Positions 11,713 to 35,918 of a stretch of 64,000 nt of DNA are shown here, in pieces. Position numbers and translations under genes: made by a program. Every line of letters begins with the position of its first letter. The first letter of the stretch is position 1. This stretch comes from Syntrophales bacterium (GTDB taxonomy: Bacteria > Desulfobacterota > Syntrophia > Syntrophales > UBA2210), in contig CAXXKT010000001.1 of NCBI GenBank assembly GCA_963662405.2, positions 1,152,001 through 1,216,000 of the forward strand. The letters are read 5' to 3'. The notes beneath the pieces are model-generated. The model did not search any database. It was not told where the DNA came from and was given only the letters and a program-made list of their open reading frames with translations.

Positions 11713-11975
11713 CTGTGGGGCGGGCAACAGATATGCTAGATCGGCAGATGGATGTGCCTTTTTGGTGTGCGCGCAGCACGAGATGTGCTCCCCTTCGACA
11801 CTCTGGACTTCTCATGCTGATAGCCCGATCTGCTTTATGCACAGAAAGCTTTGGATGTAAAAGGACAAACGGTATGGATAACGGAAAGTTGCCGGTAGGC
11901 GGTCGCGATATATCTGAAAGAGGAATATGCCGTTTGGGTAATGTATGAAACAATTTACAATGGGCAAAAGAGATG

Positions 11976-13639
11976 CAGGAGGATTAAGATGTCAATGATG
12001 AACGCGAAGCAGTACGAGGAGAGTTTGAGGAAGTTGCATTTTAATGTGTGGATGTTCGGGAAGAAGGTGGAGAACGTGGTGGACAATCCGATCATCCGTC
12101 CGTCGATGAACGCGGTGGCGGCGACGTATGAATTTGCCCACTATCCGGAGTACGAGGACCTGATGACGGCGACCTCTCATATTACGGGGAAGAAGGTCAA
12201 CCGGTTCACGCATATCCACCAGAGCACGGAAGACCTGGTGAAGAAGTCCAAGATGGGGCGGCTGTTGGGCTCCCTGACGGGCTGCTGTTTTCAGCGGTGC
12301 GTGGGGATGGACGCGATGAACGCCCTGTCCATGACCACCTACGATATCGATCAGAAGCACGGGACCGAGTACAACAAGCGTTTCCTGAAATACATGGAAT
12401 ACGTCCAGGAGGGCGACCTGACCTGCGACGGCGCCATGACCGATCCGAAGGGAGACCGGGGCAAGGCCCCGCACCAGCAGGACGATCCGGACATGTTCAT
12501 GCACGTGGTGGAAGAGAAGAAAGACGGGATCGTGGTGCGGGGTGCGAAGTGCCACCAGACCGGTGCGGTCAACTCCCACGAGATCATCATCATGCCGACC
12601 ATCAGCATGCGCGAGGAGGACAAGGACTATGCCATCTCCTTTGCGCTCCCCGCCGATGCCGAGGGGATCACCTACATCATGGGGCGTCAGTCGTGCGACA
12701 CGCGGAAACTGGAAGCGGGTACCATGGACCGGGGGAACCAGCTCTACGGCGGCCATGAGGCCCTGGTCGTCTTCGATGATGTCTTCGTCCCCTGGGAGCG
12801 GGTCTTCATGTACAAGGAATGGGAATTCGCCGGCCAGCTGGTGGAGCAGTTCGCCTCCTACCATCGTCAGAGCTACGCCTGCAAGGCGGGTGTGGGCGAT
12901 GTCCTCATCGGCGCGACCCAGTGTATCGCCGAGTACAACGGTGCCCAGAAGGCCTCCCACGTGAAGGACAAGATCATCGAGATGAACCATCTCAATGAGA
13001 CCCTCTTCTGTGGATCGATTGCCTGTGCGTCCGAAGGGCACAAGGAGCCGAGCGGGACGTACTACGTCAACACCCTCCTGGCGAACGTGTGCAAGCAGAA
13101 CGTGACGCGGTTTCCCTACGAGATCGCGCGTCTGGCGCAGGACATTGCGGGCGGTCTGATGGTGACCCTTCCCTCGGAAGAAGACTTCCGATCCCCCGAG
13201 ATCGGGAAATGGATTGAGAAATACTACCGGGCCAGCACGGCCGTCTCCACGGAAGACCGGATGCGGATGCTGCGTCTGATCGAGAACATCACGCTGGGGA
13301 CGGCTGCGGTGGGGTATCTGACCGAGTCGATGCACGGTGCGGGTTCGCCGCAGGCGCAGCGGATCATGATCTCACGGCAGGTGAACCTGGAGGAGAAGAA
13401 GAAGGTTGCCAAGAAACTCAGCGGTGTCACGAAGGATGAGTGAGAAGGTCCGGATCGGACTGAAATACTGTGGGGGGTGTAATCCCCGCTACGATCGTGT
13501 ACAGGCGGTAGGATACCTGCGGGAACGGTTGCAGGGCACCGTGGAACTTGTTTCGTACGAGGACCCGGATATTGCGGGTGTGCTGGTGGTTGCCGGCTGT
13601 CCTACCGCCTGCGTCGATCCGGAGCCGTTCAAAGAACGC
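11976..13639 (+). repeat. ~1.66 kb direct repeat, copy 1 (RBS + abfD + most of the CGGC gene)
   Basis: Matches 42828-44491; only four substitutions seen by eye, all synonymous. Confidence 0.95.
11989..13443 (+). CDS. abfD: 4-hydroxybutyryl-CoA dehydratase / vinylacetyl-CoA isomerase, copy 1
   Basis: CFQRCVGMD, GAMTDPKGDR, RGAKCHQTG, HRQSYACK, ESMHGAGSPQAQR; 484 aa. Confidence 0.93.
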   Translation: MSMMNAKQYEESLRKLHFNVWMFGKKVENVVDNPIIRPSMNAVAATYEFAHYPEYEDLMTATSHITGKKVNRFTHIHQSTEDLVKKSKMGRLLGSLTGCCFQRCVGMDAMNALSMTTYDIDQKHGTEYNKRFLKYMEYVQEGDLTCDGAMTDPKGDRGKAPHQQDDPDMFMHVVEEKKDGIVVRGAKCHQTGAVNSHEIIIMPTISMREEDKDYAISFALPADAEGITYIMGRQSCDTRKLEAGTMDRGNQLYGGHEALVVFDDVFVPWERVFMYKEWEFAGQLVEQFASYHRQSYACKAGVGDVLIGATQCIAEYNGAQKASHVKDKIIEMNHLNETLFCGSIACASEGHKEPSGTYYVNTLLANVCKQNVTRFPYEIARLAQDIAGGLMVTLPSEEDFRSPEIGKWIEKYYRASTAVSTEDRMRMLRLIENITLGTAAVGYLTESMHGAGSPQAQRIMISRQVNLEEKKKVAKKLSGVTKDE

Positions 13640-13735
13640 TCCGTGTGGGTTGTTACCCGCCGACAGGGCATCGATGATTTTGTGAAAACCATCATACCGA
13701 GGGGAAAAAAGAATGCACTGGAAAGAATTATATAA
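13436..13735 (+). CDS. Small four-cysteine protein (KYCGGCNP ... GCPTAC), function unknown, copy 1
   Basis: ATG overlaps the end of abfD; duplicated together with abfD; 99 aa. Confidence 0.8.
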   Translation: MSEKVRIGLKYCGGCNPRYDRVQAVGYLRERLQGTVELVSYEDPDIAGVLVVAGCPTACVDPEPFKERSVWVVTRRQGIDDFVKTIIPRGKKNALERII

Positions 13736-15008
13736 CCAAAAGATTACAACTGGTCAGGAGGCCGTGAAGCAGATCAAGTCCGGAGACCGGGTGGTCGTGG
13801 GGCACGCAACCGGTTCCCCGGAAGTACTGTTGACGGCCATGCTGGCCAACAGGGATGCGTATGAGGATGTGGAGATTGTCCACATGGTTGCGATGGGGCC
13901 TTCCGCATATTGCCTCCCGGAGAATTCTCCCCACTTTATCCACAATTCTCTGTTTGCCGGAGCGACAACGAGAAATGCCCTCCATGAGGGGAGGGCCATC
14001 TATACCGCATCACATTTCAGCCAGATCCCCCGGCTGTTTACCGAACGGATCGTTCCGGTCGATGTGACCCTGTGCATGCTCTCCACACCCGATGAGCATG
14101 GCTACTGTTCGTTCGGCATCTCAGTGGACTATACGAAACCCGCAGCGGAGAGTTCCAGGATCGTTATAGCGGAAGTAACGCCTCACATGCCGAGGACGCT
14201 GGGTGATGCCTTTATCCACATCTCGGACATTGATTATATCGTTGAGTGTGATTCCAAGCCCATCGAGCTCAGGCCCCCGCAGATCGGACCGATCGATGAG
14301 GCGATCGGGGGATACTGCGCAGAGTTGATACAGGACGGGGATTGCCTGCAGCTGGGTATCGGTGCGGTCCCGGATTCGATCCTGAATTTTCTGACCGAGA
14401 AGAAGGATCTGGGGATTCATACGGAGATGTTTTCCGATGGCGTTGTGGATCTGGTCAATGCGGGTGTTGTCACCTGCGCACGCAAGAATTTTCATCCCCA
14501 TAGGATGGTTGCCACCTTCTTCATGGGGACGGACAAGCTGTACAACTTTGTTCACAACAATCCCAAGGTGGAGATGTTCCCGGTTGATTACACCAACAAC
14601 CCTGCGATCATCTCCAGAAACGACAATGTGGTGTCCATCAATTCCTCGTTGCAGGTGGACCTGACCGGTCAGGCGGCATCGGAATCGATCGGCCCCAAGC
14701 AGTTCAGCGGCACGGGCGGGCAGGCCGATTTTGTCAGGGGCGCGGCCTGGTCGAAGGGAGGACGGTCCATAATCGCGTTCCACTCAACGGCGGCCAAGGG
14801 GAAGCTTTCACGGATCGTTTCCCATCTTGATGAAGGGACCACGGTAACAACGACCCGTACGGATATCCATTACATCGTGACGGAATACGGCATTGCCGAT
14901 ATGAGGGGCAAATCTGTTCACCAGAGAGCCGAGTCCCTGATCAATATCGCACATCCTGATTTTCGCGCGGACCTGAAAAAGGAGTTTAATAGGAAAAATT
15001 CTGCTTAA
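13713..15008 (+). CDS. cat2: 4-hydroxybutyrate CoA-transferase (acetyl-CoA hydrolase/transferase family)
   Basis: LQLGIGAVP, LGIHTEM catalytic Glu motif, SGTGGQADF; adjacent to abfD. Confidence 0.85.
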   Translation: MHWKELYNQKITTGQEAVKQIKSGDRVVVGHATGSPEVLLTAMLANRDAYEDVEIVHMVAMGPSAYCLPENSPHFIHNSLFAGATTRNALHEGRAIYTASHFSQIPRLFTERIVPVDVTLCMLSTPDEHGYCSFGISVDYTKPAAESSRIVIAEVTPHMPRTLGDAFIHISDIDYIVECDSKPIELRPPQIGPIDEAIGGYCAELIQDGDCLQLGIGAVPDSILNFLTEKKDLGIHTEMFSDGVVDLVNAGVVTCARKNFHPHRMVATFFMGTDKLYNFVHNNPKVEMFPVDYTNNPAIISRNDNVVSINSSLQVDLTGQAASESIGPKQFSGTGGQADFVRGAAWSKGGRSIIAFHSTAAKGKLSRIVSHLDEGTTVTTTRTDIHYIVTEYGIADMRGKSVHQRAESLINIAHPDFRADLKKEFNRKNSA

Positions 15009-15149
15009 AAAGATCGGAGTGGCTTTTCGGCAGAGGGAGGTTCGGATCGAATGGGCGATTTGAACCGTTCCCCCGGATGTGAATATATCGGACGCCTTTA
15101 CCATCAGGAGATGGAGGAGTCACAGAAAACAGATGGGAGGTTAAGGAAA

Positions 15150-16301
15150 ATGGCACAGATATTTACGATAACGCCTAAGATCATCATGGGGTTGGGAGCA
15201 ATCGATGCAATTGGAGATGAGATCAAGCGACGGGGTGTAAAGAAGGTCCTAATCGTAACCGACAAAGGGGTTATTGCAGCAGGGTTGACGCAGGCCATTG
15301 AGGCGTCACTCACGGCGGCCGGAGTGGCATTTGGCACCTTTGACGGTGTGGAGCCCGATCCACGATATGAGATTGTCGCGGATTGTCTTGCAAAGGTGAA
15401 AAATGAGGAGGCTGAGCTCCTGATCGGACTCGGCGGAGGGAGTCCCATCGATATCGCCAAGACGACTGCGGTTATGGCGACAAACGACGGTCCCATCGGA
15501 GCGTACTTCGGGATTGATCTGATTCCCAAGCCGGGTCTCCCAACGATTATGGTCCCCACCACGGCGGGGACGGGGAGTGAGGTCACACCGATCGCGATTT
15601 TGTCCGACGAAGGCGAAAAGCTGAAAAAGGGTGTCGTGAGTCCTTATCTCTATCCTGCTGCGGGAATACTTGATCCGGTGCTGACCGCGGGGTTGCCTCC
15701 CCATGTAACGGCAGCCACGGGGATGGACGCGCTGATCCACGCAGTGGAGGCCTACACGTCCATTAATGCCACAGGGATGACGGATATGTACTGCATCCGT
15801 GCCATTGAACTTATTTACAACAACCTGCGGACGGCCTACGCCAAAGGCGACAATATGGAGGCGCGGACGGCGATGATGGAAGGGGCACTCCTGGCGGGTA
15901 TCGGTTTTGCGAATGCAGGTGTCACGGCGGTCCATGCCTTTGCCTATCCGATCGGGGCCGAGTTCCACATCCCCCACGGAGTTGCGAATACCCTCATGCT
16001 GCCCCATGTGATTCGTTATAACGTGCTGGGGAACCTGCCCAAGTTTGCGGGGCTGGCAAAGCCCTTCGGGATTCCGACGGAAGGCCTGGATGATCTTCAG
16101 ATTGTTGACCGTGTGATCGGGGCGATCGACCGGCTGGCCGACGATCTGCGTGTCCCGCGCCATCTTGCTGATTTCGGAGTAAAGGAAGAAGACGTACCGA
16201 TGCTGGCCGAGGGTGTGATGAAGGTGACCCGTCTCCTGGCCAACAATCCGAGAACGCTGATTCTCGAGGACGCTAAGGCGATATATACGGCGGCGCTTTA
16301 A
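15150..16301 (+). CDS. Iron-containing alcohol dehydrogenase, probable 4-hydroxybutyrate dehydrogenase
   Basis: GLGGGSPID, PTTAGTGSE, DALIHAVE, H...HIPHG; substrate inferred from position between the CoA-transferase and gabT. Confidence 0.85.
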   Translation: MAQIFTITPKIIMGLGAIDAIGDEIKRRGVKKVLIVTDKGVIAAGLTQAIEASLTAAGVAFGTFDGVEPDPRYEIVADCLAKVKNEEAELLIGLGGGSPIDIAKTTAVMATNDGPIGAYFGIDLIPKPGLPTIMVPTTAGTGSEVTPIAILSDEGEKLKKGVVSPYLYPAAGILDPVLTAGLPPHVTAATGMDALIHAVEAYTSINATGMTDMYCIRAIELIYNNLRTAYAKGDNMEARTAMMEGALLAGIGFANAGVTAVHAFAYPIGAEFHIPHGVANTLMLPHVIRYNVLGNLPKFAGLAKPFGIPTEGLDDLQIVDRVIGAIDRLADDLRVPRHLADFGVKEEDVPMLAEGVMKVTRLLANNPRTLILEDAKAIYTAAL

Positions 16302-16388
16302 AGAAGTCTTGTCTGGGTGAGGATCTCATCCCAGAGATCCTCACCCGGGCCGCTATCAGGAAATATTGATTTTCAGGAGGAAGAACAG

Positions 16389-17690
16389 ATGGATAATAAG
16401 TCTCTGGTTGACAAACGATCGGCGACCCTCGCGAAATCTTTTGCGGGCGGCAAACCGGCCTTTGCGGCATATGGACAGGGTGCCATTTTGACTGACGTAG
16501 ACGGTCGTGAATATATCGATTTTGCGGGTGGAATCGGTGTCATGAATATCGGGCATTCCCATCCGAAAGTGGTCGCCGCCATTCAGGAACAGGCCGCGAA
16601 ACTGACACACTCCTGCTTCATGGTGGTGCCCTATGAACCGGCCGTCAAGCTGGCGGAGCGTCTCTGTGCCCTGACACCCGGTTCTTTCCCGAAGAAGGCC
16701 TTTTTCGTGAATGCCGGCGCCGAAGCGGTGGAGAACGCCGTGAAGATATCGCGGTATTATACCAAGAGGCCGGGGATCGTTGTCTTTGATAACTGCTTCC
16801 ACGGGCGGACCCTGCTCACCATGACGATGACGAGCAAGGCAAAGCCCTATAAGTTTGGATTCGGCCCCTTCGCCTCAGAGATTTACCATGCGCCCTATGC
16901 ATACTGTTACCGGTGTCCCTTCGGTCTGGAGTACCCGAAGTGTAATACCTACTGTGCCGATTTCCTGGCACAGGAGTTTTTTATCCGATGTCCTGCGGAA
17001 ACAACGGCGGCGGTGATAGCAGAACCCGTACAGGGTGAAGGTGGTTTTATCACACCTCCCCCTGAATATTTCCCGAAGGTTGCGCAGATCTGTAAAGATA
17101 ACGGGATACTCTTTGTCTCCGATGAAATTCAGGCGGGGATGGCACGGACGGGTGGAAAACTCTTTGCTATCGAGCACTGGGGTGTTGAGCCGGACCTGGT
17201 GACCATTGCGAAGAGTCTCGCCGCCGGTATGCCTCTCAGCGCCGTCGTCGGGAGAGAAGAGATCATGGATTCCATCCACCCCGGGGGAATCGGCGGGACC
17301 TACGGCGGCAACCCCGTGGCCTGCGCGGCAGGGAATGCCGTTCTGGACGCCTACGAGGAAGACAATATCCTCGATAAGAGTGAGGCGTTGGGTCAGAAAC
17401 TGTGGGCGGCATTCACGGAGATGCAGAAGAAGTACGAAATTATCGGCGATGTCCGTGGCAAGGGGCCGATGATCGCCCTTGAGTTGGTCGTGGACCGTGT
17501 GACGAAAGAGACCAATGCTGAGGCAGCGGGCAAGATCGCCGCCTACGCCTTTGAGAAGGGACTGATCCTCCTGAGCTGCGGACCCTATGGTAACTGCATC
17601 CGGTGCCTGATGCCGCTGGTGATTACCGATGAGCAACTCGATCGTGGGCTGGCGATTATTGACGAGGCCTTTGCCTCTCTCGAAAAGTAA
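16389..17690 (+). CDS. gabT: 4-aminobutyrate:2-oxoglutarate aminotransferase, copy 1
   Basis: YIDFAGGIGV, GAEAVENAVKI, EPVQGEGG, DEIQAG, AKSLAAG (PLP Lys), GGTYGGNP. Confidence 0.9.
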   Translation: MDNKSLVDKRSATLAKSFAGGKPAFAAYGQGAILTDVDGREYIDFAGGIGVMNIGHSHPKVVAAIQEQAAKLTHSCFMVVPYEPAVKLAERLCALTPGSFPKKAFFVNAGAEAVENAVKISRYYTKRPGIVVFDNCFHGRTLLTMTMTSKAKPYKFGFGPFASEIYHAPYAYCYRCPFGLEYPKCNTYCADFLAQEFFIRCPAETTAAVIAEPVQGEGGFITPPPEYFPKVAQICKDNGILFVSDEIQAGMARTGGKLFAIEHWGVEPDLVTIAKSLAAGMPLSAVVGREEIMDSIHPGGIGGTYGGNPVACAAGNAVLDAYEEDNILDKSEALGQKLWAAFTEMQKKYEIIGDVRGKGPMIALELVVDRVTKETNAEAAGKIAAYAFEKGLILLSCGPYGNCIRCLMPLVITDEQLDRGLAIIDEAFASLEK

Positions 17691-17998
17691 GAAATCATAG
17701 TTGGTAGTGTGTTCTTTAAAAATTCCGCGACCGGCGGAGATGATTCTTTAAAATAGTGATAATACTGCTGCCCATATCCTTTTTGGATGAGCCGGGACGG
17801 TTTCACAAAGCGTTTGTGCTCGGGGTATATGTCTGGACAGCAGTTATACGTGGTGACGACAAGATCCTGATATAGTCGGCGATGCACTCGATCATTGTGG
17901 CGCAATGACTTTGAAATGTGTAGCGCGGCACGTTCGGATCTTCGGCCTCTTCAGTGGGGAGAGGAAACCCTAATAAGCTATTGTGGAAGGAGAACGGG

Positions 17999-19255
17999 AT
18001 GAAAAAAGTAAATTGGTGGCGAAATGGATTTATCTGTGTTTTGGCCTTGGCATTTGTCTGCTTCATGATCGTATCAACGGGTACGTCAGCAGTGGCAAAG
18101 GACAAGGTCATTAAGATCGGGAACATCCTTCCTCTCTCAGGACCTTCGGCGTCGGTCGGTCTTCAGGGGAAGTATGCCCGTGAGCTGGCAACCGAGATGA
18201 TCAACAATGCAGGAGGCATCAAATCGTTGGGCGGCGCCAAACTGGAGAATATCTATGTCGACAGCAAGAGTGATCCCACCGTAGGCGTCACCGCTGCCGA
18301 ACGGCTCATCAATACGAATAGAGTTAATATCCTTTCGGGATGCTGGAACTCCGCCGTCACCTATCCGGCGACGCAGGTGGCAGAGCGATACCGCATCCCC
18401 TTCGTTGTTCCCGTGTCCGTGCGCAACACCATTACGGAACGGGGATTCAAATATACCTTTAGAATTGCGGCCAAGGACGCCTGGTGGACCCGCGATCAGT
18501 TCAAATTCCTGGAAGAGATGAAAGAAGCGACCGGGACGGAGTTGAAGACGGTTGCCTTTGTCTACGAGAATGGTGACTGGGGTGTTGGCATGGCCGAGCA
18601 GTGGACCCTTCTCGCAAAGACGTACGGCTACGAGGTGGTGCTCAATGAGCCCTATCCCAGCACCGCCAGTGACCTGACGCCTGTTGTCATGAAGATTAAA
18701 CGTGCCAAACCCGACGTCATATTGCTGACGTCGAATGCATCCGATGCAATCCTCCTGACCAACACCATGGCGGAAATGAAGGTCAAGGCCAAGGCGATTA
18801 TCGGCACGGGCGGTGGTCATGCAGACCCCATGTTCCGGAAGAACTGCGGAAAAAATGCCGAGAATATGTTTGACGTTGTCGAGTGGGAAGCGGACCTGAA
18901 CAAGCCCGGTATCCCCGAGTTGAACGCGGAATTCAAGAAACGTCACGGATTCGACCTCGCCGGTGAATCCGTGGATGCATTCGCATCGGTCTTCGTGATC
19001 GCGGATGCCCTTGAACGGGCCGGATCGACGAATCCTCAGAAACTGAGAGAGGCATTTGCCGCTACCAAGTTATCTACGGGTCCCGGCATGATCGTCTCTT
19101 ACGACTGTGTCGAATTCGACGAATCGGGGCAGAACAAGAACGCCGGTATCGTGATGGTCCAGTACCGCATGGTCAACGGAAATCTGGAACGTGTTTCCAT
19201 ATGGCCCAAGAGTGCTGCACGAACCGGCTATGAGGCCGTATTCCCAATGCCTTAG
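17999..19255 (+). CDS. ABC transporter substrate-binding protein (LivJ/K-like)
   Basis: Signal peptide; IKIGNILPLSG, INNAGGI; heads a livHMGF-like run. Confidence 0.9.
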   Translation: MKKVNWWRNGFICVLALAFVCFMIVSTGTSAVAKDKVIKIGNILPLSGPSASVGLQGKYARELATEMINNAGGIKSLGGAKLENIYVDSKSDPTVGVTAAERLINTNRVNILSGCWNSAVTYPATQVAERYRIPFVVPVSVRNTITERGFKYTFRIAAKDAWWTRDQFKFLEEMKEATGTELKTVAFVYENGDWGVGMAEQWTLLAKTYGYEVVLNEPYPSTASDLTPVVMKIKRAKPDVILLTSNASDAILLTNTMAEMKVKAKAIIGTGGGHADPMFRKNCGKNAENMFDVVEWEADLNKPGIPELNAEFKKRHGFDLAGESVDAFASVFVIADALERAGSTNPQKLREAFAATKLSTGPGMIVSYDCVEFDESGQNKNAGIVMVQYRMVNGNLERVSIWPKSAARTGYEAVFPMP

Positions 19256-19350
19256 GTGTATGACGTACGCATAACATTTATTAAAGATCGGGATTCGGAA
19301 GAGCCCTTGCATAGCTCTTCCGAATCCCGCAGAGCGAAAACGAGGTTGTT

Positions 19351-20235: not shown

Positions 20236-20253
20236 GAAAGGAGACAGAAAAAG

Positions 20254-21258
20254 ATGACAAAGGAAAAATTGGACAAGCTGCTCAAAATCATTCTGGTTGT
20301 GGGTGTCTTTACGCTCCCCCTCTGGATGAGGAGCCCGACATATCTCCAGATTTTGGTATTGCTCTTCTGGTACGCCTATCTTACCACCTCCTGGAATCTG
20401 GTTGGCGGATGGGCCGGCGTCCTGCCCTTGGGACACTCGGCATATATCGGCATTGGGGCGTACACATCGACGGCACTGGCCCTGCACTACGGTTTAAGCC
20501 CCTGGATCGGGATGTTCGCCGGGGGGATTCTTGCCGCAATTGTGGGGATCATTATTGGTGTTCCCACCTTGAAATTACGCGGCGCATACTTTGCGCTTTC
20601 GACGATGGCCTTCGGAGAAGGCGTACGGGTCTTTGTGGAGAACACCGATAAGATCGGCCCCTTCCTGATAAACGGGCCGAGAGGGATCTGTATTCCGCTC
20701 AAGGAATCGTTCTGGACCTTTCAGTTCATGAGCAAGGTTCCTTACTACTACATCATCCTGATTATGCTGAGCATCGCCCTTTTTATTACCTGGTATATGT
20801 CAAAGACCAAAATCGGCTACTATCTGAACGCAGGTGGTGAAGAGCCGGAAGCGGCAGAGGCGCTCGGGATCAATGTGGCGAAATATAAAGTAATCGCAAT
20901 GGCCATCAGTTGTTTTATGACAGGACTGGCTGGGACCTTCTACGCGCAACTGGCGCTTTATTTCTATCCCAAGGCTATCCTGGGACTGGATCTCTCCTTC
21001 GAAATCGCATTCATTGCCCTGATCGGAGGAAGAGGGACGATTGCAGGACCCGTGCTCGGTGCCTTAATTCTCCGGCCGGTTACCGATTTTTCGCGTATCT
21101 ATTTCAGCAGCGTATTGCCCGGTCTTCACCTCGTTATTTACGGGCTGGTTCTTATACTGGTGATGATCTATCAACCACGGGGCCTGCAGGAACCACTTAA
21201 CAGATTCTATAATTGGTTCCTCGATAAGGTGACTGGTAAGAAGGAGGTGAAGATGTAA
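20254..21258 (+). CDS. livM: ABC permease, LivM-like
   Basis: WNLVGGWAG, LRGAYFALST, IGGRGTIAGP, PRGL. Confidence 0.9.
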   Translation: MTKEKLDKLLKIILVVGVFTLPLWMRSPTYLQILVLLFWYAYLTTSWNLVGGWAGVLPLGHSAYIGIGAYTSTALALHYGLSPWIGMFAGGILAAIVGIIIGVPTLKLRGAYFALSTMAFGEGVRVFVENTDKIGPFLINGPRGICIPLKESFWTFQFMSKVPYYYIILIMLSIALFITWYMSKTKIGYYLNAGGEEPEAAEALGINVAKYKVIAMAISCFMTGLAGTFYAQLALYFYPKAILGLDLSFEIAFIALIGGRGTIAGPVLGALILRPVTDFSRIYFSSVLPGLHLVIYGLVLILVMIYQPRGLQEPLNRFYNWFLDKVTGKKEVKM

Positions 21259-21992
21259 TGGCAGCAATACTTGAGGTCAAGAACGTATCGAAACATTTTG
21301 GTGGATTGAAAGCGGTCGATCAGGTTGATCTAACGATCGAGAAAGGCCAGATATACGGACTGATCGGACCGAACGGTGCCGGGAAGTCGACACTCTTCAA
21401 CTGTGTTGCCGGGACCTATGCACCGACATCGGGACAGATTCTTTTCAAAGGACAGGACATCACGGGAACGAAACCCTGGGATATCTGCAAGATGAGAATT
21501 GCCCGGACCTTTCAGCTGGTAAAACCCTTCAAGATGAAAACGGTCCTTTATAACACCATGGTGGGAGCCTTCGTGCGATCTAACAATCCTGCCGAGGTCA
21601 GGGACATGGCCCTGGAGGTCCTCGAGATGTTGAAGCTTGCCGATAAGAAGGACGTACTGGCGAAGAACCTCACGATAGCAGACAGAAAACGCCTTGAAGT
21701 GGCTCGTGCAATGGCAACGAACCCGGAGATTCTTCTTCTTGATGAGTGTATGGCTGGCTTGAGACCGAACGAAGTCGATGCGATCCTCGATATCGTTCGA
21801 GGTATCAGAGATCGGGGTGTGACGATTTTTGTCATTGAGCACATTATGAGGGCAATTATGACACTCTCGGATCGTATTATGGTGATTCATTTTGGGGCAA
21901 AAGTGATGGAAGGAACACCCCAAGAAGTATCACAAGATGAACGAGTCATAAAAGCATACCTAGGGGAGAGTTATGTCGCTACTGGAAATTAA
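21258..21992 (+). CDS. livG: ABC ATPase, LivG-like
   Basis: GPNGAGKST, ARTFQ, LLDE, VIKAYLG. Confidence 0.92.
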   Translation: MAAILEVKNVSKHFGGLKAVDQVDLTIEKGQIYGLIGPNGAGKSTLFNCVAGTYAPTSGQILFKGQDITGTKPWDICKMRIARTFQLVKPFKMKTVLYNTMVGAFVRSNNPAEVRDMALEVLEMLKLADKKDVLAKNLTIADRKRLEVARAMATNPEILLLDECMAGLRPNEVDAILDIVRGIRDRGVTIFVIEHIMRAIMTLSDRIMVIHFGAKVMEGTPQEVSQDERVIKAYLGESYVATGN

Positions 21993-22683
21993 AAATATCA
22001 ACTGCTTTTACGGAGATGTCCAGGTCATCTACGGCGTGTCGATGCATGTTGAAGAAGGTGAAATCATTAGTATGATCGGTGCCAACGGTGCCGGAAAATC
22101 AACAATTCTCAGGTGTATTTCAGGTTTGATGAAGGCGGCCTCAGGAGAGATCTATTTTGAAGGCCAACCGATTCACAACCATCGACCCGAGAAAATTGTG
22201 GACCGCGGTGTGATCCACGTCCCCGAGGGTCGAAAACTGTTCTCCCTGATGACATCGAAAGAGAACCTCGAGGTGGGTGCACACAACCCCCGCGCCTATC
22301 CTCACATGAAGGAAAGCTTCGCAGATGTCTACAAACTGTTGCCGCGGTTGCAGGAGCGGGAGGATCAGCAGGCGATTACCATGAGCGGTGGTGAACAGCA
22401 AATGGTAGCCATTGGCCGCGGGATGATGGCCATGCCAAAGATCCTGATGCTCGACGAGCCATCACTTGGTCTTGCTCCTGTCCTGATCCAGGAAATCTTC
22501 CAGACGATCAGGAAAATTGCGGACCAGGGAACCACCGTACTGCTCGTGGAGCAAGACGTGCAGCATTCTCTCAGTCTGAGTGATCGTGGATATGTACTCG
22601 AACACGGCCGCATCGCTTATGAAGGCACGGGAAAAGAGTTGTTGGATAACCCGAATATCCGAGAGGCCTACCTCGGGATATAG
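21973..22683 (+). CDS. livF: ABC ATPase, LivF-like
   Basis: GANGAGKST, VPEGR, MSGGEQQM, LDEPSLGLAP. Confidence 0.92.
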   Translation: MSLLEIKNINCFYGDVQVIYGVSMHVEEGEIISMIGANGAGKSTILRCISGLMKAASGEIYFEGQPIHNHRPEKIVDRGVIHVPEGRKLFSLMTSKENLEVGAHNPRAYPHMKESFADVYKLLPRLQEREDQQAITMSGGEQQMVAIGRGMMAMPKILMLDEPSLGLAPVLIQEIFQTIRKIADQGTTVLLVEQDVQHSLSLSDRGYVLEHGRIAYEGTGKELLDNPNIREAYLGI

Positions 22684-22913
22684 TAGTCAACTCATGAACT
22701 ATGTAAAGAGGGTGCATTCCCGCCCCCGCCAGGGAGCGGGAATGCATGCCGGAGAATCGATGGCTTTGCAATCCTGCCCGGGTGATCACCGGGCATGGGT
22801 AAGAGGGGGAGTAGTGCGTGACAAATGCCCTGGGATGGAGACACGACAATAAAAGAGGTGCGGTTCATCCACGAGGTTTTTGTATATACTCATTTTTTTG
22901 AAGGGAGGAAGCC

Positions 22914-23660
22914 ATGAAAGTAGATCTCAATGTGGACATGGGTGAGAGTTTTGGGATGTATACCATGGGAAATGATGAGGCGTTTATGTCCTACATCACA
23001 AGTGCAAATGTTGCCTGCGGATATCACGCGGGAGATCCCACCGTGATGAAGAAGACGGTGGATCTGGCCAAGAAGCATGGCGTGCAGGTGGGTGCTCATC
23101 CCGGGCTCCCCGATTTGCAGGGCTTCGGGCGCCGTGAAATTAACATGACGATGGATGAAATCTACAGCGATATCGTCTATCAGGCCGGCGCACTGAAGGC
23201 CTTTGTCGAAGCGGCGGGCATGAAACTGCACCATGTGAAACCCCACGGTACACTGTACGGCATGGCGCACCGCAGAGAGGATGTAGCGCGGGCGATCTGC
23301 CAGGCCATCCTTGATGTGGACAAGGGCCTGTATCTCTACGCCATGAAGAAAGGGGTGATCGAGGGGGTAGCAAAGGAGATGGGCGTGAAAGTCGTCTTCG
23401 AAGTGTATGCCGATCTCGATTATGACGCGGAAGGAAATCTGGTCATCACAAGACATCATGAGGCACATAAGCCGGAAGATGTCGCCGCAAAGGTCATCAA
23501 GATGGTCAAAGACGGTCGTGTCAGCACGACCGACGGAACGGAGATCGATATCGAAGGATCGTCGGTCTGTGTTCACTCCGACAGCCCCGGCGCCATAGAG
23601 ATTGTCACCGCAGTCCGAAAGGTACTGGATAACAACGGGTACGAGATCGTTTCCCCGTAA
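22914..23660 (+). CDS. pxpA: LamB/YcsF family protein (5-oxoprolinase subunit A / lactam utilisation)
   Basis: DLNVDMGESFG, SANVACGYHAGDP, GAHPG, HVKPHGTLY, CVHSDSPGA. Confidence 0.93.
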   Translation: MKVDLNVDMGESFGMYTMGNDEAFMSYITSANVACGYHAGDPTVMKKTVDLAKKHGVQVGAHPGLPDLQGFGRREINMTMDEIYSDIVYQAGALKAFVEAAGMKLHHVKPHGTLYGMAHRREDVARAICQAILDVDKGLYLYAMKKGVIEGVAKEMGVKVVFEVYADLDYDAEGNLVITRHHEAHKPEDVAAKVIKMVKDGRVSTTDGTEIDIEGSSVCVHSDSPGAIEIVTAVRKVLDNNGYEIVSP

Positions 23661-23821
23661 TGGCTATCTATGTGTATGTGTGATCAGTCTGGAGAGGAAA
23701 TACCGGGAAAGACGGTATGGATCCCAAAGCGAATATGATGGGTTGAATGTAGAGAGGAAAGGAGGTTTTTGGGTCACCTAGGGTGTAGTTTCGAACAATT
23801 AACGAAAGGAGCTCAAATACT

Positions 23822-24808
23822 ATGGGAGAAAGAGACTATAATGTGATTCTGGACACGTTGCCTGCAACTGAGACGAGACTGGAAGTACTGTTCCGGCAGG
23901 CGGGAGATGGTTTTCTTCAGATTGAGTATGGGAGAACGCAGCGTGCAAACCTGCTCGATTCCTTCCGGATGCAGACGATCGATGCGGAGGTCAGGGAAAA
24001 GGCGCCGAAGGGGTTCATTGAAACCCTGCCGGGGGTCAGGACGAATATGATCCATTTCGACCCCGAGGTGCTCGATGTCCGTGCCCTTATCGATATGATC
24101 AAACAGTTCGAAGAAGATCTTCCCGACGTGGAGCATATCGTGATGCCGTCACGTCTGATTCACCTGCCGATCGCGTTCGAAGACAGCGAGACCAAAAAAG
24201 CTGTGGAAAAGTATGTGAAAGAAATTAGGCCCGATGCCCCCAATGTCATTAACGGTTATAACCTGGAGTACATGGCCCTCTGCAACGGGGTGACCGCCGA
24301 GGATATCAAAAAGATCCTCCTTGCCACCGAGTGGTATAACAGCGGCGGCGGTTTCTGGCCCGGCGGCGGTTTCTTCTGGCCGGTCGACCCGCGGTGCGCC
24401 ATTGTTGTCCCCAAATACAATCCGCCCCGAACCTGGACACCGGAAGGAACGGTTGGCATCGGTGGCCCCTGTGTCTTTACCTACACCACCGCAACCGGCG
24501 GCGGATATCAGCTTTTCGGGAGAACGATCCCCGTCTTCCAGTTCGCCCAGAAACACCCCCTCTTCAAGAAATCACCATTCCTGTATGTCAACGGTGACAG
24601 AATCGTATTCCACGAGGTTAGTGAGAAGGAGATCCTCGATGGGTTCGATCACGTCCACAACAAGGCCGATTACGAGTATGAGATCGAGGACGGCGAGATC
24701 GTGGTCAAGGAATACTTGGATTTCGTGAATTCTGAAGAGGTCAAAAAGGGCGCTGCGGAATTTCAGGCCAAACAGGCCGAGGGTTCAAAGACGGCCCCCC
24801 GCCTCTAA
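23822..24808 (+). CDS. Carboxyltransferase subdomain C/D protein (urea-carboxylase-type, PxpB-related)
   Basis: RQAGDGFLQIEYG, RPDAP, KYNPPRTWTPEGTVGIGG, GGYQLFGRT; 328 aa, longer than a typical PxpB. Confidence 0.85.
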   Translation: MGERDYNVILDTLPATETRLEVLFRQAGDGFLQIEYGRTQRANLLDSFRMQTIDAEVREKAPKGFIETLPGVRTNMIHFDPEVLDVRALIDMIKQFEEDLPDVEHIVMPSRLIHLPIAFEDSETKKAVEKYVKEIRPDAPNVINGYNLEYMALCNGVTAEDIKKILLATEWYNSGGGFWPGGGFFWPVDPRCAIVVPKYNPPRTWTPEGTVGIGGPCVFTYTTATGGGYQLFGRTIPVFQFAQKHPLFKKSPFLYVNGDRIVFHEVSEKEILDGFDHVHNKADYEYEIEDGEIVVKEYLDFVNSEEVKKGAAEFQAKQAEGSKTAPRL

Positions 24809-24832
24809 TCACATCTGCAGAAGGAGGACGTT

Positions 24833-25816
24833 ATGTTGAAGATATTAAAGGGTGGTATTGAATCGATGGTTGAGGATTGGCCCGGCAGGTTGGGATATCT
24901 GAGCAAGGGTATGGCCGCTTCCGGTGCTCTGGACAATATGGCTCTTCAGTTCGGAAATCTGCTGGTGGGAAACCCCATTGACGAGGCAGGCGTGGAGATC
25001 GCCGGTGGCTATTTCGAGGCAGAATTTCTGGATGATGGCGTGATCAGCGTGTGCGGAACCGACATGAAACCCACCATCAACGGCACGTCGATCCCCATGT
25101 GGGAGGCTGTCGCGGTGAAGAAGGGCGATACGTTGAACCTCGCCGTATTCGGAGAGTTCGGATTCCGCGCATATCTTGCCATTGCCGGCGGGATCGATGT
25201 CCCCAAATATCTGGGGAGCAAATCGACCTGTATGTTTGGAAGCTACGGCGGTTTTGAAGGACGGGCGCTGCTCCCCGGCGATGTCCTGAAGATCGGCGCT
25301 CCCTCAAAGAATCTGGGCGATCTCGCGGGACGGAAGCTGAAGGACGATGTGGTCCCGAAATACTCGCGAGTCTGGGAACTGCGGACCATACCGGGACCCA
25401 ACACCTGCCCCGATTACGTGACGAAGGAGGGAATGGATTATCTGTATGAGACCGAGCACAAGATACAGCATACCTCCAACCGTTCCGCCTATCGTATCGA
25501 ATCGGTCCCGGAGTATTTCTGGGCGCGAAAGGATGGGGGCGTCGGTGGAAGCCATCCGTCCAACATCGTTGATCACGGTTACGCGATTCGCGGTACCCTG
25601 AACATCTGTGGTGATACCCCCATTATTCTGATCGGGGATGGGCCCACGCTGGGCGGGTATGTCAACGTGATGCACGTAATAAATGCGGATCTGTGGAAAA
25701 TCGGCCAGGGAACCCCTGCCCGTGACAGTTTCAAGTTCAGCTATATCACCCGAGAAGGGGCGATAGAGGAACGGAAGAAACAGAAGGCCCTGTATACTGA
25801 AGCGTCAATTGCTTAA
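24833..25816 (+). CDS. Carboxyltransferase subdomain A/B protein (PxpC-related)
   Basis: DWPGRLGY, SGALD, GFRAYLAIAGGIDVP-YLGSKST, GGSHPSNI, DGPTLGGY. Confidence 0.88.
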   Translation: MLKILKGGIESMVEDWPGRLGYLSKGMAASGALDNMALQFGNLLVGNPIDEAGVEIAGGYFEAEFLDDGVISVCGTDMKPTINGTSIPMWEAVAVKKGDTLNLAVFGEFGFRAYLAIAGGIDVPKYLGSKSTCMFGSYGGFEGRALLPGDVLKIGAPSKNLGDLAGRKLKDDVVPKYSRVWELRTIPGPNTCPDYVTKEGMDYLYETEHKIQHTSNRSAYRIESVPEYFWARKDGGVGGSHPSNIVDHGYAIRGTLNICGDTPIILIGDGPTLGGYVNVMHVINADLWKIGQGTPARDSFKFSYITREGAIEERKKQKALYTEASIA

Positions 25817-25851
25817 TACATTGATCAATCAAATGAGATGAGGAGGATATT

Positions 25852-26073
25852 ATGGATTTCGCTGTGGAAGCGACGATGCCGGGATTGGTGGCACGAGTTG
25901 TTGTGAACGCGGGTGATGCGGTTGCGGAAGGTCAGGAAGTGGCTGTCATCAATTGTATGAAAACCGAGATCAGTGTTGCTGCCGCGAAGGCAGGCTCTGT
26001 CAAGACCATCAAGGTCAAGGAGTGGGATGAGGTACAGGTCGGCGATCCGATGGTGATCCTGGATGTAGCCTGA
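25852..26073 (+). CDS. Stand-alone biotin carboxyl carrier protein
   Basis: 73 aa biotinyl/lipoyl domain: ATMPG, GDAV-EGQ, NCMKTE (biotinyl-Lys), GD. Confidence 0.88.
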   Translation: MDFAVEATMPGLVARVVVNAGDAVAEGQEVAVINCMKTEISVAAAKAGSVKTIKVKEWDEVQVGDPMVILDVA

Positions 26074-26189
26074 GCGCCTCTCGACGCGTTATTCACATTG
26101 AAATTTCCGTGGGGCGACGTCATCCTGATGCCGCTCCACGGAATCCAACATCGCATCATAAAATTGCTATCGAAGGGGGTAGTATTGTT

Positions 26190-26795
26190 ATGCAAGAGGT
26201 AAAAGAGGTAAATGTGAATGTTCAAGTGGCGGATGCCGGGTCGGCCGGATGGATAGCCTATACGATCGCTACCTGGATCGCGTGGGCGTCCCTGTGCGGA
26301 TTTGTCAACAGCAAGGCCCTGCTCTTCATGGCCTGCATCTCTCTGGCCTGCACCATTCCCTATATCGGTGCCGCGATTACGCAGCTGAAGCTCGGGAATG
26401 TGTCCGGTGGAGTCACGTGGCTCTATTTCGGTGCATTCTTTGCCTTTTGTTCGGCCCTGACCTATGGTGTCAGCTATTTTGCGCCCATCTATGGATGGGA
26501 ACTGGATGCCAGGATCCTGGGATATGAGTGGGCTGTCCTGGGGTTGACACTGATCTGCTCGACACCCATATTCCTGAAGCTGGCACCGGCGGCAGCCGGC
26601 ATATCTGTTATCGGAGCCGATATAGGTATCGTTGGACTGACCCTGATATACTGGGGGATGAACGGTCCGGCCATGTGTCAGTTGAGTGGGTGGGGCTTCT
26701 TTGTGGCAGGTCTTTTCGGCCTTTTTATGACCATCGGGGGTATTCTTGAGGGTGCCGATATGAAGTTCCCCATGGGAAAACCTTTAATGAAGTAG
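26190..26795 (+). CDS. Six-TM small-solute channel, Gpr1/Fun34/YaaH (SatP)-like, divergent
   Basis: About six hydrophobic helices; ADAGSAGWIAY and GNVSGGVTWLYFGAFF resemble family signatures; C-terminal PMGKPL. Confidence 0.6.
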   Translation: MQEVKEVNVNVQVADAGSAGWIAYTIATWIAWASLCGFVNSKALLFMACISLACTIPYIGAAITQLKLGNVSGGVTWLYFGAFFAFCSALTYGVSYFAPIYGWELDARILGYEWAVLGLTLICSTPIFLKLAPAAAGISVIGADIGIVGLTLIYWGMNGPAMCQLSGWGFFVAGLFGLFMTIGGILEGADMKFPMGKPLMK

Positions 26796-26934
26796 ATAAT
26801 GAGAGATGGTAACGGGTTCCGTTAACCCTATGTAAGTGACGGAGTTCGACGTCCGGGTTGATCGGAGAAGAATCTTCGATCAACCCGTGTAACCCGTTGC
26901 CGTCCGCACTTGGTAGAGGATAAGGACAGAATCA

Positions 26935-28290
26935 ATGAAGAAGATTTTAATTGCCAACAGAGGGGAGATTGTTCTTAGGGTAATCAAGGCGGCCAGGGAA
27001 TTGGGGATACAGACCGTTGCTGTCTATTCCGATGTCGACAAGGATGCCGTCCACACACGCGCGGCGGATGAAGCGGTGAATATCGGGACTCCCCCACCTC
27101 CCTTCAGCTATCTGAGTATCGAAAATATTATCAAGGCGGTCAACGAGTCAGGGGCGGACGCAGTGCATCCGGGATATGGTTTTCTTTCTGAAAACGCTGA
27201 TTTCGCTCAGGCTGTGGTCAATAACGGTACCACGTGGATAGGGCCGTCGCCGGAGGTGCTTCGTAATATCGAATCGAAGTCGTATTGCAGAAGCCTGGGA
27301 AAGAAAGTGAACGTTCCGATTACCCCGGGGACTGTCGGGAGTGTGAAGAGTGCGGACGAGATCCGTGCGTTGTTCAAAGAACTGGGTGCTCCGCTCTTGG
27401 TGAAACTCGATAAGGGTGGGGGAGGAAAGGGGATACAGCCCATATACCGCGAAGAGGATATCGAGGCGATATTTGAATCCTCCCAAAGTATCGGGAAGGC
27501 AGCCTTTGGTTCCGGAGATTGTTACATCGAAAAACGGATACTCAATCCACGTCACATCGAGGTTCAGTTCCTCGGTGACATGTATGGAAATTATATCACC
27601 CTCGGCGAGCGAGAATGCTCGGTCCAGAGAAGGTACCAGAAGGTTGTCGAGGAGGCTCCCTCATCGATCGTGACCCCGGAGGAGCGGAAGAATCTGGCGC
27701 AATGGGCAATCAGCATAGCGCGTGAGATGGGGTATATCAACGCCGGAACCGTCGAGTTTCTGCGGGCGGACGATGGCACGTTCTACTTTATGGAAGTCAA
27801 TGCGCGGATACAGGTCGAGCACCCTGTTACCGAGATGGTGACAGGTATCGATCTCGTCAAAAGCCAGTTGCGGATTGCCTCGAATGAAAAGCTGGATATC
27901 GTCCAGGACGATATCCAGATCAATGGCCATGCCATTGAGGCCCGTATCTATGCGGAAGATCCGGAAACCTTTATGCCTTCGCCGGGAACGATCAGCATGG
28001 TAGTGCTCCCTGAAGAAAAGAATGGGATACGGATCGACCATGCCCTCGAAGAGGGTATGAGGGTGTCGCCCTTTTATGATCCCATGCTGGCAAAGGCGAT
28101 CGCATGGGGTGAAAACCGTGACGCGGCCGTTGAACGGCTGGAGGGTCTGCTGGGTGAACTGGTGATCGGGGGCGTGAAGACCACCATACCCCTCGGGCAG
28201 CTCATATTGAAGAGTGAACCCTTCAAGCAAGGAACCTTTACCACGGATTCTATGAATGATATCTTGCCGGGAGCGAAGGAGTCAAAGTAA
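26935..28290 (+). CDS. accC: Biotin carboxylase subunit
   Basis: KILIANRGEI, HPGYGFLSENA, GGGGKG, RECSVQRRYQK, FMEVNARIQVEHPVTE, YDPMLAK. Confidence 0.93.
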   Translation: MKKILIANRGEIVLRVIKAARELGIQTVAVYSDVDKDAVHTRAADEAVNIGTPPPPFSYLSIENIIKAVNESGADAVHPGYGFLSENADFAQAVVNNGTTWIGPSPEVLRNIESKSYCRSLGKKVNVPITPGTVGSVKSADEIRALFKELGAPLLVKLDKGGGGKGIQPIYREEDIEAIFESSQSIGKAAFGSGDCYIEKRILNPRHIEVQFLGDMYGNYITLGERECSVQRRYQKVVEEAPSSIVTPEERKNLAQWAISIAREMGYINAGTVEFLRADDGTFYFMEVNARIQVEHPVTEMVTGIDLVKSQLRIASNEKLDIVQDDIQINGHAIEARIYAEDPETFMPSPGTISMVVLPEEKNGIRIDHALEEGMRVSPFYDPMLAKAIAWGENRDAAVERLEGLLGELVIGGVKTTIPLGQLILKSEPFKQGTFTTDSMNDILPGAKESK

Positions 28291-28521
28291 AGATACATGA
28301 CGGACACCGGTCGTGGAAAAGGGCCCGGATTCATTTCCCCTGCGGAAACGGTCTGTGTGCGGCTGGTGCCCATACGGCGGATATCACGGAAGTGATTGGC
28401 CCCGGGCGATGTCTCTCCTTTCCTGAAGAGACATCGTCCGCAGTTGTGATGTGAGGATGTAATGATCGGGCATGAGTCACAGGATGGCACATATAGGGAT
28501 GTTTCAACGGGTTTCATGCCG

Positions 28522-35908: not shown

Positions 35909-35918
35909 GGAATTGCAC

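Follow-up and report, generated by a model that had tools for sequence, protein, structure and literature searches.

A split biotin-dependent carboxylase and LamB module in one gene run with the reductive 4-aminobutyrate route of a Syntrophales bacterium: a candidate system for anaerobic 2-pyrrolidone degradation

The DNA considered here is a 64,000-nt stretch from a Syntrophales bacterium (assembly GCA_963662405.2, contig CAXXKT010000001.1, forward strand, positions 1,152,001 to 1,216,000), hereafter called the window, in which gene families were called with Pfam and NCBIfam profiles. Between positions 9447 and 28290 the window carries 17 co-oriented genes, all on the plus strand (Table 1). 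Behind a PAS/sigma-54 activator come the genes of the route from 4-aminobutyrate (GABA) to crotonyl-coenzyme A (CoA), a five-gene Liv/Urt-type ATP-binding cassette (ABC) importer and, at the 3' end, a module composed of a LamB/YcsF hydrolase, two carboxyltransferase (CT) subunits, a biotin carboxyl carrier protein (BCCP), and a biotin carboxylase (BC), with the gene for a SatP-like membrane protein between the last two. An initial annotation of this DNA had listed these genes in this order, and each of them was found, co-oriented and at the same coordinates. We propose that the five module proteins encoded within 22914-28290 would constitute a lactam hydrolase that is complete in itself, depends on ATP, bicarbonate, and biotin, and feeds the GABA route, with 2-pyrrolidone as the most likely substrate. 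From sequence comparison, we put the probability of this reading at about 0.55.

The module holds all four parts of a urea carboxylase, namely, BC, CT_A_B, CT_C_D, and a BCCP with its biotinyl lysine. These are encoded by four separate genes and not by the single polypeptide that the urea carboxylase model TIGR02712 describes (~1200 amino acids [aa], more than 1303.85 bits); on this model, the individual proteins scored 477.6 (BC), 289.2 (CT_A_B, model positions 449-763), 228.6 (CT_C_D, model positions 788-1097), and 44.3 bits (BCCP). The same model gave the best NCBIfam score of both CT subunits, and their best solved relatives were the Kluyveromyces lactis urea carboxylase/urea amidolyase structures (3va7 and 5i8i; 189 and 135 bits), with Escherichia coli YbgK/YbgJ and a mycobacterial pair ranking behind. 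On the models for the corresponding subunits of the 5-oxoprolinase PxpABC, CT_C_D reached 43 bits versus a cut-off of 145.55 (PxpB, TIGR00370) and CT_A_B 166.6 bits versus 500 (PxpC, NF045499); the latter equivalog model is narrow, as none of 25 free-standing representatives among 36 proteins scanned reached its cut-off. The locus also departs from the three-gene PxpABC format, which has no BC or BCCP of its own, since both lie inside the module here. Both are likewise present in 42 of 42 full-module metagenome loci (a set defined by having all five genes), and the biotinyl MK motif was kept in 52 of 52 aligned carrier homologues. The module is single-copy, with the only LamB, CT_C_D, and CT_A_B of a genome rated 100% complete, which contains one other BC (contig C2, 43% identical) and two genes of the biotin/lipoate ligase family. 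A CT_C_D search retrieved 617 proteins at E ≤1e-10; the best 120 of these 617 were free-standing proteins of 326-330 aa with 66-100% identity, bearing names such as 'allophanate hydrolase subunit 1', 'urea carboxylase', and 'carboxyltransferase domain-containing protein'. Fused urea-carboxylase-like proteins were, among the matches listed, only 38-44% identical.

The phylogenetic position of the module was explored with a FastTree reconstruction of 195 CT_A_B sequences (131 representatives from a 50%-identity library, 53 metagenome loci, 10 genome loci, and the window), rooted at the midpoint and with SH-like local support only. All 62 of the 62 module-type sequences fell into a single clade of 68, together with five representatives and one short locus (support of 100). 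This clade was set apart from an 87-sequence clade of mostly fused forms (support of 97) and from the other free-standing clades, so that the CT_A_B of the window lies outside the urea carboxylase clade. Judged from this tree, the module is a lineage of its own, neither a split urea carboxylase nor a typical PxpBC.

The genes 5' of the module would together make up a reductive route from GABA to crotonyl-CoA. The alignment of AbfD to the Clostridium aminobutyricum enzyme (1u8v) spans only residues 19-496, and the true start is therefore probably near position 11995. The residues aligned to C99, C103, H292, and C299 of 1u8v, which we take to be the iron-sulfur cluster ligands of AbfD, are all conserved. 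The small Cys-rich protein encoded next had no family match in Pfam or NCBIfam, and its gene travels with abfD, being kept 3' of abfD in a Desulfomonilia metagenome-assembled genome (locus L003) and duplicated along with abfD. The top PDB matches of the CoA-transferase were all 4-hydroxybutyrate CoA-transferases (3eh7, 518 bits; 3gk7, 459.6 bits), and the iron-containing alcohol dehydrogenase (Fe-ADH) would, from its gene context, be the succinate-semialdehyde reductase/4-hydroxybutyrate dehydrogenase. The initial annotation had noted that the window lacks a succinate-semialdehyde dehydrogenase, and indeed no aldehyde-dehydrogenase-family gene was seen there; a six-frame search of the genome for Aldedh gave four matches, all outside C1:1152001-1216000. 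The set resembles the GABA fermentation of C. aminobutyricum, with high-scoring homologues of AbfD, AbfT, and GabT and a glutamate dehydrogenase nearby. It differs in that the pathway genes share their run with an importer and a putative lactam-opening module, and in that the genome has three near-identical copies of abfD. Two of these copies are in the window, at 11976-13657 and 42828-44509; they match at 99.6% over 1682 bp, a stretch that takes in the greater part of the small Cys-rich gene. The third (G000:C1:51751-53190; 99.9% identical over 1440 bp) is accompanied by a CoA-transferase, an Fe-ADH, and a sigma-54 activator (identities of 71, 66, and 53%, respectively). Because the genes flanking the copies have diverged, the pattern suggests that abfD alone was recently duplicated or gene-converted.

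Table 1. Genes and signals of the run and of the adjacent second unit (positions in the window)
Feature	Position	Strand	Evidence or remark
PAS/sigma-54 enhancer-binding activator	9447-11210	+	Sigma54_activat 225.9 bits, PAS, HTH_8
Bidirectional terminator-like hairpin	11191-11222		3' of the PAS/sigma-54 activator
Second, weaker candidate sigma-54 element	11502-11517		Upstream of abfD
Candidate sigma-54 -24/-12 element, TGGTAC-N5-ATGC	11608-11625	+	Consensus match only; upstream of abfD
AbfD, 4-hydroxybutyryl-CoA dehydratase/vinylacetyl-CoA isomerase	11941-13443	+	HpaB_N/HpaB; 704.7 bits to PDB 1u8v
Cys-rich 109-aa protein	13406-13735	+	Motifs ..YCGGC.. and ..AGCPTAC..
4-Hydroxybutyrate CoA-transferase (AbfT-like)	13713-15008	+	Pfam AcetylCoA_hydro/_C
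Fe-ADH, iron-containing alcohol dehydrogenase	15051-16301	+	Pfam Fe-ADH
GabT (GabT1), 4-aminobutyrate:2-oxoglutarate transaminase	16317-17690	+	TIGR00700 557.6 bits, cut-off 506.65
Liv/Urt-type ABC importer, five genes	17954-22683	+	Peripla_BP_6, BPD_transp_2 x2, ABC_tran x2
Importer, binding protein	17954-19255	+
Importer, permeases	19351-20235, 20254-21258	+
Importer, ATPases	21258-21992, 21973-22683	+
LamB/YcsF (PxpA-type) hydrolase, proposed ring-opening subunit	22914-23660	+	PF03746 324 bits
CT_C_D carboxyltransferase subunit (PxpB/KipI-like, urea-carboxylase type)	23822-24808	+	PF02682 137 bits
CT_A_B carboxyltransferase subunit (PxpC/KipA-like, urea-carboxylase type)	24833-25816	+	PF02626 253.7 bits
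Biotin carboxyl carrier protein, 73 aa	25852-26073	+	PF00364 54.1 bits; biotinyl-lysine motif CMKT
Six-helix membrane protein, SatP/AceTr-like channel fold	26190-26795 (reading frame open from 26109)	+	Structure model
Biotin carboxylase (ATP-grasp)	26935-28290	+	Biotin_carb_N, CPSase_L_D2, Biotin_carb_C
Terminator-like hairpin	28521-28552	+	13-bp stem, then T-rich tail; closes the run, 3' of biotin carboxylase
Second unit, PAS/sigma-54 activator	28601-30352	+
Sigma-54-like element	30567-30580	+	5' of gabT2
Second unit, GabT2	30682-31983	+
Second unit, glutamate dehydrogenase	32014-33477	+

The association of the module with gabT is not confined to this genome. The initial annotation had named a lack of synteny with gabT/abfD in other genomes as an outcome that would speak against it; synteny was found, in several gene orders. 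A pattern scan of species-representative genomes gave 7 loci and, with the window counted, 9 of 11 genome loci had gabT no more than 10 kb away from the module. In L003, the genes 3' of the module encode, in this order, AbfD, the Cys-rich small protein, CoA-transferase, Fe-ADH, GabT, and a binding protein. Two Lachnospiraceae loci, L004 (Diplocloster modestus) and L005, place BC, CT_C_D, CT_A_B, BCCP, and LamB beside GabT and Fe-ADH, and an AbfD query gave no match in either genome. The genome of locus L002 (G404) has an ABC-GabT-FeADH-CoA-transferase-AbfD cluster 8.7 kb past the module on the opposite strand; the full AbfD cluster thus occurs near the module, in other arrangements, in two related genomes (L003 and G404). 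Within the phylum sample of 401 genomes, CT_C_D had a match in 12 and close orthologues (68-70% identity) in 5 besides the present genome (G000). All 5 of these loci carry a GabT 58-63% identical to GabT2, and in 4 of the 5, gabT lies between lamB and CT_C_D. The GabTs that were scanned, one inside the module (L012) and one upstream (L010), scored 563 and 566 bits versus the GABA-transaminase cut-off of 506.65. The module is sparse in Clostridia as well, being found in 2 of 399 sampled genomes, the seed genome included, and a genome of the same genus (G149) lacked both the module and the GABA cluster at the DNA level. At another locus (L009:10908-11366, genome G258), the CT_A_B gene is broken by a stretch of N (the locus contains 300 N), and its first 39 residues are readable.

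In metagenomes, 80 loci were recovered, 71 of them unique after near-identical ones were dropped, and all five module genes were present in 42 of the 71. GabT at ≥45% identity accompanied 16 of these 42 full-module loci, and 8 of the 16 loci whose flanks each extend for 5 kb or more; many of the unlinked loci are short contigs. The metagenome and genome sets overlap slightly, as the CT_A_B proteins of L016 and L025 are identical to those of the genome loci L002 and L007. The position of gabT varies: 5' of lamB, between lamB and CT_C_D, right before CT_C_D where lamB follows CT_A_B, or after BC, with at least six gene orders in the metagenome loci. By a rough estimate, without a computed control, the chance of finding gabT within 10 kb of a given gene is about 1 in a hundred, for a genome of a few Mb with one or two gabT genes. 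One gabT-less locus, L020, has an HTH-domain biotin ligase, a TetR regulator, a putrescine aminotransferase scoring 647 bits (cut-off, 612), and an aldehyde:ferredoxin oxidoreductase 3' of the module (L020:13904-19150) and BioY upstream of it; a biotin ligase is also near the module in L016. The product of putrescine aminotransferase cyclises to pyrroline, whose oxidation can yield 2-pyrrolidone. The locus suggests a putrescine-pyrroline-pyrrolidone connection, and its aminotransferase and oxidoreductase point to C4-amine metabolism here too, which we counted in favor of the proposed pathway.

By analogy with urea amidolyase, the module can be read as a carboxylate-then-hydrolyse system. The BC would carboxylate the small carrier protein, and the CT pair, as free-standing counterparts of the CT domain of urea carboxylase, would transfer this carboxyl group to a small lactam, most likely 2-pyrrolidone, at its amide nitrogen (or lactim oxygen). 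The LamB/PxpA hydrolase would then open the activated ring, and the resulting carbamate would lose CO2 to give GABA, at a net cost of one ATP per ring. GabT would convert GABA to succinate semialdehyde, Fe-ADH would reduce this to 4-hydroxybutyrate, the CoA-transferase would form 4-hydroxybutyryl-CoA, and AbfD would yield crotonyl-CoA. Uptake of the substrate (or GABA) may be the task of the ABC importer and the SatP-like channel, and the PAS/sigma-54 activator may turn the run on. That the module supplies an omega-amino acid to GabT seems to us quite likely, and the lactam reading of the initial annotation is supported as far as these comparisons reach. Since a complete reductive GABA route, an importer, and the lactamase module stand in one run, the window is a good candidate for an anaerobic pathway from pyrrolidone to crotonyl-CoA. 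That annotation knew of no described anaerobic bacterial pyrrolidone pathway with this architecture. Our literature search, which covered few subscription journals, yielded no anaerobic pyrrolidone route and no account of a bacterial lactamase that depends on biotin.

Several known systems share part of this architecture. The LamA protein of Aspergillus nidulans is presumably urea-carboxylase-like. Among 120 matches listed for fused relatives of the carboxylase, those with a name were bacterial or metagenomic and nearly all labelled urea carboxylase, and a fungal LamA was not among them; no paper tying lamA to urea carboxylase or amidolyase was found in the literature covered. We know of no assay of the LamA or LamB proteins. 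Genetically, both are tied to the use of 2-pyrrolidinone. As genes of lactam catabolism, lamA and lamB are placed in the AmdR regulon, which also includes gatA and gabA of GABA catabolism (PMC8016842). The present locus thus shares with them a LamB-family protein, a biotin enzyme (if LamA is of this kind), and a tie to GABA catabolism, seen here as gabT linkage. It differs in its four-protein carboxylase, its anaerobic bacterial host, and its use of the reductive AbfD route instead of succinate-semialdehyde oxidation. These lam genes, cited as a precedent in the initial annotation, stand as such, but a bacterial case was overlooked there, PP_2920-2 of Pseudomonas putida, a PxpABC paralogue reported as required for growth on butyrolactam (2-pyrrolidone) as a nitrogen source (bioRxiv 10.1101/2021.12.09.472016). 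This LamB/PxpA plus PxpB/PxpC-type system, with an adjoining regulator, is described there as having three subunits and no dedicated BC or carrier, in an aerobic host, and the evidence given consists of fitness data and deletions, not enzymology. Pseudomonas aeruginosa PA0492-PA0496 is presumably a similar cluster and may include LamB and CT genes; the labels met in papers for its products are 'probable biotin-requiring enzyme', 'probable acyl-CoA carboxylase subunit', and 'function unknown'.

PxpABC 5-oxoprolinases (E. coli YbgJKL, Bacillus subtilis, Corynebacterium glutamicum) combine the LamB_YcsF, CT_C_D, and CT_A_B families in the ATP-dependent opening of a five-membered lactam. The module of the window brings a BC and a BCCP of its own, both CT subunits miss the PxpB/PxpC cut-offs and belong to another clade, and the CT_C_D has 328 aa versus 218-228 aa in solved PxpB-type chains. 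With urea carboxylase/amidolyase (K. lactis 3va7, 5i8i) it shares the BC, CT_A_B, CT_C_D, and BCCP domains and would share the carboxylate-then-hydrolyse logic, but it is divided among four polypeptides, with a LamB hydrolase in place of allophanate hydrolase. A 2026 cryo-electron microscopy study of Mycobacterium smegmatis reports that the free-standing PxpC/PxpB homologues MSMEG_0435-0436 bind the BCCP biotin of the long-chain acyl-CoA carboxylase in a placement suited to carboxylation, and that they are without urea carboxylase activity (PMC13012033). Because these proteins engage BCCP biotin, carboxyl transfer from biotin is supported as a chemistry of PxpC/PxpB-type proteins; they differ from the present module in borrowing the BCCP of another enzyme, and the authors suggest a regulatory role. 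The earlier remark that PxpABC has no biotin components therefore holds for the genes, but these mycobacterial homologues do hold a foreign BCCP biotin. Caprolactamase, for its part, needs bicarbonate, and a carboxy-lactim intermediate is among the mechanisms discussed for it (PMC8453981).

A number of observations weigh against the proposed pathway. The clade is known from its genes, and 2-pyrrolidone, as opposed to another lactam, is a putative substrate suggested by the neighboring genes. GabT-linked and unlinked loci are interleaved in the CT_A_B tree, where linkage marks no subclade, and two genome loci, L002 and L007, encode no GabT at 10 kb or less from the module. Fe-ADH scored 240.2 bits on the NCBIfam 4-hydroxybutyrate dehydrogenase model NF058672, versus a cut-off of 500, and reached no equivalog. 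A single transcript for the module and the GABA genes is likewise presumed from the layout. Spacing between genes is 24-264 bp inside the run and 24-162 bp within the carboxylase/LamB module, and the first strong terminator-like hairpin downstream of the start of the run is the one that closes it; the 230-bp gap 5' of lamB contains two hairpins, with no promoter found in it, so that co-transcription with the GABA genes stays a presumption. The hairpins of this gap (22712-22745 and 22778-22795), between the last ABC ATPase gene and lamB, are GC-rich and without a T tract, and another with a 17-bp stem lies 3' of the binding-protein gene (19289-19329). All of these may be processing or stability elements.

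Other readings of the module draw on some of the same evidence. Half of the wide-flank metagenome loci (8 of 16) are without gabT, and the gabT-less loci carry old-yellow-enzyme reductases, aldehyde:ferredoxin oxidoreductases, DUF1097, and sugar-type binding proteins, neighbors that hint at other substrates; both facts count against 2-pyrrolidone and would fit the same chemistry on another small lactam or cyclic amide (valerolactam, substituted or unsaturated pyrrolidones, a cyclic imide) or several specificities within the family. It is also established that GabT-type enzymes take several omega-amino acids. For the present locus we nevertheless find this unlikely, as the pathways of the window, L003, and G404 end in the C4-specific AbfD and 4-hydroxybutyrate CoA-transferase, the GabTs of L012 and L010 clear the GABA-transaminase equivalog, and the putrescine aminotransferase neighbor is also a C4 enzyme. 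The module family may nonetheless have more than one specificity. L033 and L037 have sugar-type binding-protein ABC systems and old-yellow-enzyme reductases, with an aldehyde oxidoreductase in one of them, and these flavin reductase and DUF1097 neighbors are hints of other, perhaps unsaturated, ring substrates. Old-yellow-enzyme-type flavin reductases stand beside the module at L030:8774-9877, L033:13002-14087, and L037:14165-15247, and a DUF1097 membrane protein is encoded just 3' of it in L030, L044, L086, and L094. Should the enzyme and substrate be those proposed, its role could still be the salvage of internal 2-pyrrolidone, formed from mis-activated GABA-CoA or from oxidised pyrroline derived from putrescine. 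To this reading, which overlaps with the proposed pathway, we give only a slim chance. In P. putida, C4/C5 omega-amino acids have been argued to cyclise after CoA-thioester activation, and lactamase mutants are reported as slightly growth-impaired on these amino acids (bioRxiv 10.1101/2021.12.09.472016); here, a CoA-transferase gene is near the module in the window, and L020 pairs the module with putrescine aminotransferase and an aldehyde oxidoreductase. Importers and channels that travel with the module (ABC systems in the window and many loci, SatP-like proteins, DUF1097) suggest an external substrate instead, and an ATP-costly five-protein system with its own activator would be heavy for repair.

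The module could also be the 5-oxoprolinase of the organism, a PxpABC variant with its own BC and carrier that makes glutamate, in which case the GABA neighbors would reflect nitrogen metabolism shared through glutamate dehydrogenase. LamB does clear the PxpA subfamily cut-off (NF003814, 327.7 bits versus 226), although it stays under the PxpA equivalog cut-offs (for example, NF003813, 292.3 versus 392), and as the only LamB, CT_C_D, and CT_A_B of a complete genome, the module could double as a 5-oxoprolinase; both points tell against a dedicated 2-pyrrolidone enzyme. Glutamate dehydrogenase is encoded near the module in the window (32014), L009, L012, L018, L052, L075, and L079, but it is expected equally as the recycler of 2-oxoglutarate for GabT. 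With the CT subunits far under the PxpB and PxpC cut-offs, CT_A_B in a separate clade of 100% local support, and a glutamate product that explains no gabT between lamB and CT_C_D in four genomes, we judge this alternative quite improbable, even if 5-oxoproline is harder to dismiss as a substrate than urea or guanidine. A split urea carboxylase or guanidine carboxylase scavenging nitrogen agrees with the top NCBIfam scores of both CT subunits and with the public names of their homologues, 'urea carboxylase' and 'allophanate hydrolase subunit 1'. It is very hard to reconcile with the remainder and appears highly improbable: the genome has no allophanate hydrolase above the cut-off (best TIGR02713 score of 220.4 bits versus 511.05), no protein of DUF1989, which we take to be the carboxyguanidine deiminase family, was found in it, and no riboswitch was found in the window. 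The CT_A_B clade is outside that of the fused urea carboxylases, whose members are just 38-44% identical, and neither LamB nor gabT linkage would serve a role in urea or guanidine breakdown.

If the proposed lactam hydrolase is real, it would give a function to a widespread and mis-annotated set of proteins ('allophanate hydrolase subunit 1', 'urea carboxylase') and a testable biochemical meaning to the lamA/lamB genes, and biotin-dependent enzymes would gain a new substrate class and reaction logic. It would also represent the first anaerobic route for 2-pyrrolidone, leading straight into the energy-yielding 4-hydroxybutyryl-CoA pathway. 2-Pyrrolidone serves industry as a solvent and for making polymers, and it also arises in the chemistry of putrescine and GABA. 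The contribution of the window is that a single run unites the lactamase module and an importer with a complete reductive GABA route (AbfD, AbfT, Fe-ADH, and GabT).

A broader idea, possible but rather doubtful in our view, is that the PxpABC/LamB superfamily as a whole consists of biotin enzymes that N-carboxylate the lactam ring before LamB hydrolysis, the five-gene module being self-sufficient and the three-gene systems borrowing carboxybiotin. Just as tentatively, the borrowers would be 5-oxoprolinase, the P. putida butyrolactam hydrolase, and the mycobacterial pair, and their source would be housekeeping carboxylases. In P. putida, the butyrolactam catabolism fitness module fModule_46 groups PP_2919-2922 with PP_0362, a gene assigned elsewhere to the two modules for biotin biosynthesis (PMC10949508, supplement file 1). 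The six cofactor-and-pathway cases named in a passage of that article do not include this pairing, which we count as a precedent for the proposed lactam hydrolase as well. The co-fitness of PP_0362 (bioB) may reflect a biotin need of the three-gene PxpABC-type lactamase; the hint is weak, since it concerns one gene with fitness effects in many conditions, and this too counts on the negative side of the biotin reading. If biotin dependence extended across the superfamily, ordinary bacterial 5-oxoprolinase might have a hidden biotin requirement, carboxylation-assisted hydrolysis of lactam amides would be an added reaction class of biotin enzymes, and anaerobes would be able to turn pyrrolidone (or pyrroline derived from putrescine) into butyrate or acetate.

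Among the accessory genes of the run, the importer is found in the same arrangement in L018. The six-helix membrane protein had no Pfam match even at E up to 10 and did not reach the Gpr1_Fun34_YaaH profile (PF01184), but scored 0.94 to Gpr1_Fun34_YaaH clusters in a protein atlas. Its AlphaFold model (pLDDT confidence of 80.1) has the six-helix SatP fold, superposing on the SatP channels 5ys3, 5ys8, and 5zug with template-modeling (TM) scores of 0.73-0.82 (E of 2.4e-4 to 2.2e-3) versus only 0.40-0.50 for the UreI urea channel. As the model superposes on these acetate/succinate channels, the word 'channel' used in the initial annotation is fair. A SatP-like gene is also inside the module in L002, L003, and 10 of the 71 unique metagenome loci.

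Homologous activators were found upstream of the module in L002, L003, L007, L009, and L011-L013. A scan of the window for the sigma-54 consensus with up to two mismatches gave 27 matches versus a shuffle mean of 23, a count not above that of the shuffles; only the two matches before abfD and the one before gabT2 are sensibly placed, and the scan gave none before lamB. Past the terminator of the run, a second unit begins with its own activator, GabT2 (77% identical to GabT1), and glutamate dehydrogenase; judging from known GABA fermentation, the latter would restore the 2-oxoglutarate used by GabT. Also encoded in the interval 28601-44545 are citrate synthase, a PNPOx-like protein, another ABC importer of the Liv type, and the second copy of AbfD. 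With three abfD copies, this second unit included, the organism has at least three AbfD-centered clusters.

RNA genes of the ordinary kind in the window, from Rfam, comprise three tRNAs and a small signal recognition particle RNA (46124-46196, 56167-56494). Near the module of one metagenome locus, a dimethylamine methyltransferase gene (L026:35-1057) adjoins a corrinoid protein gene and has an in-frame TAG at 716-718, the known pyrrolysine position of that family.

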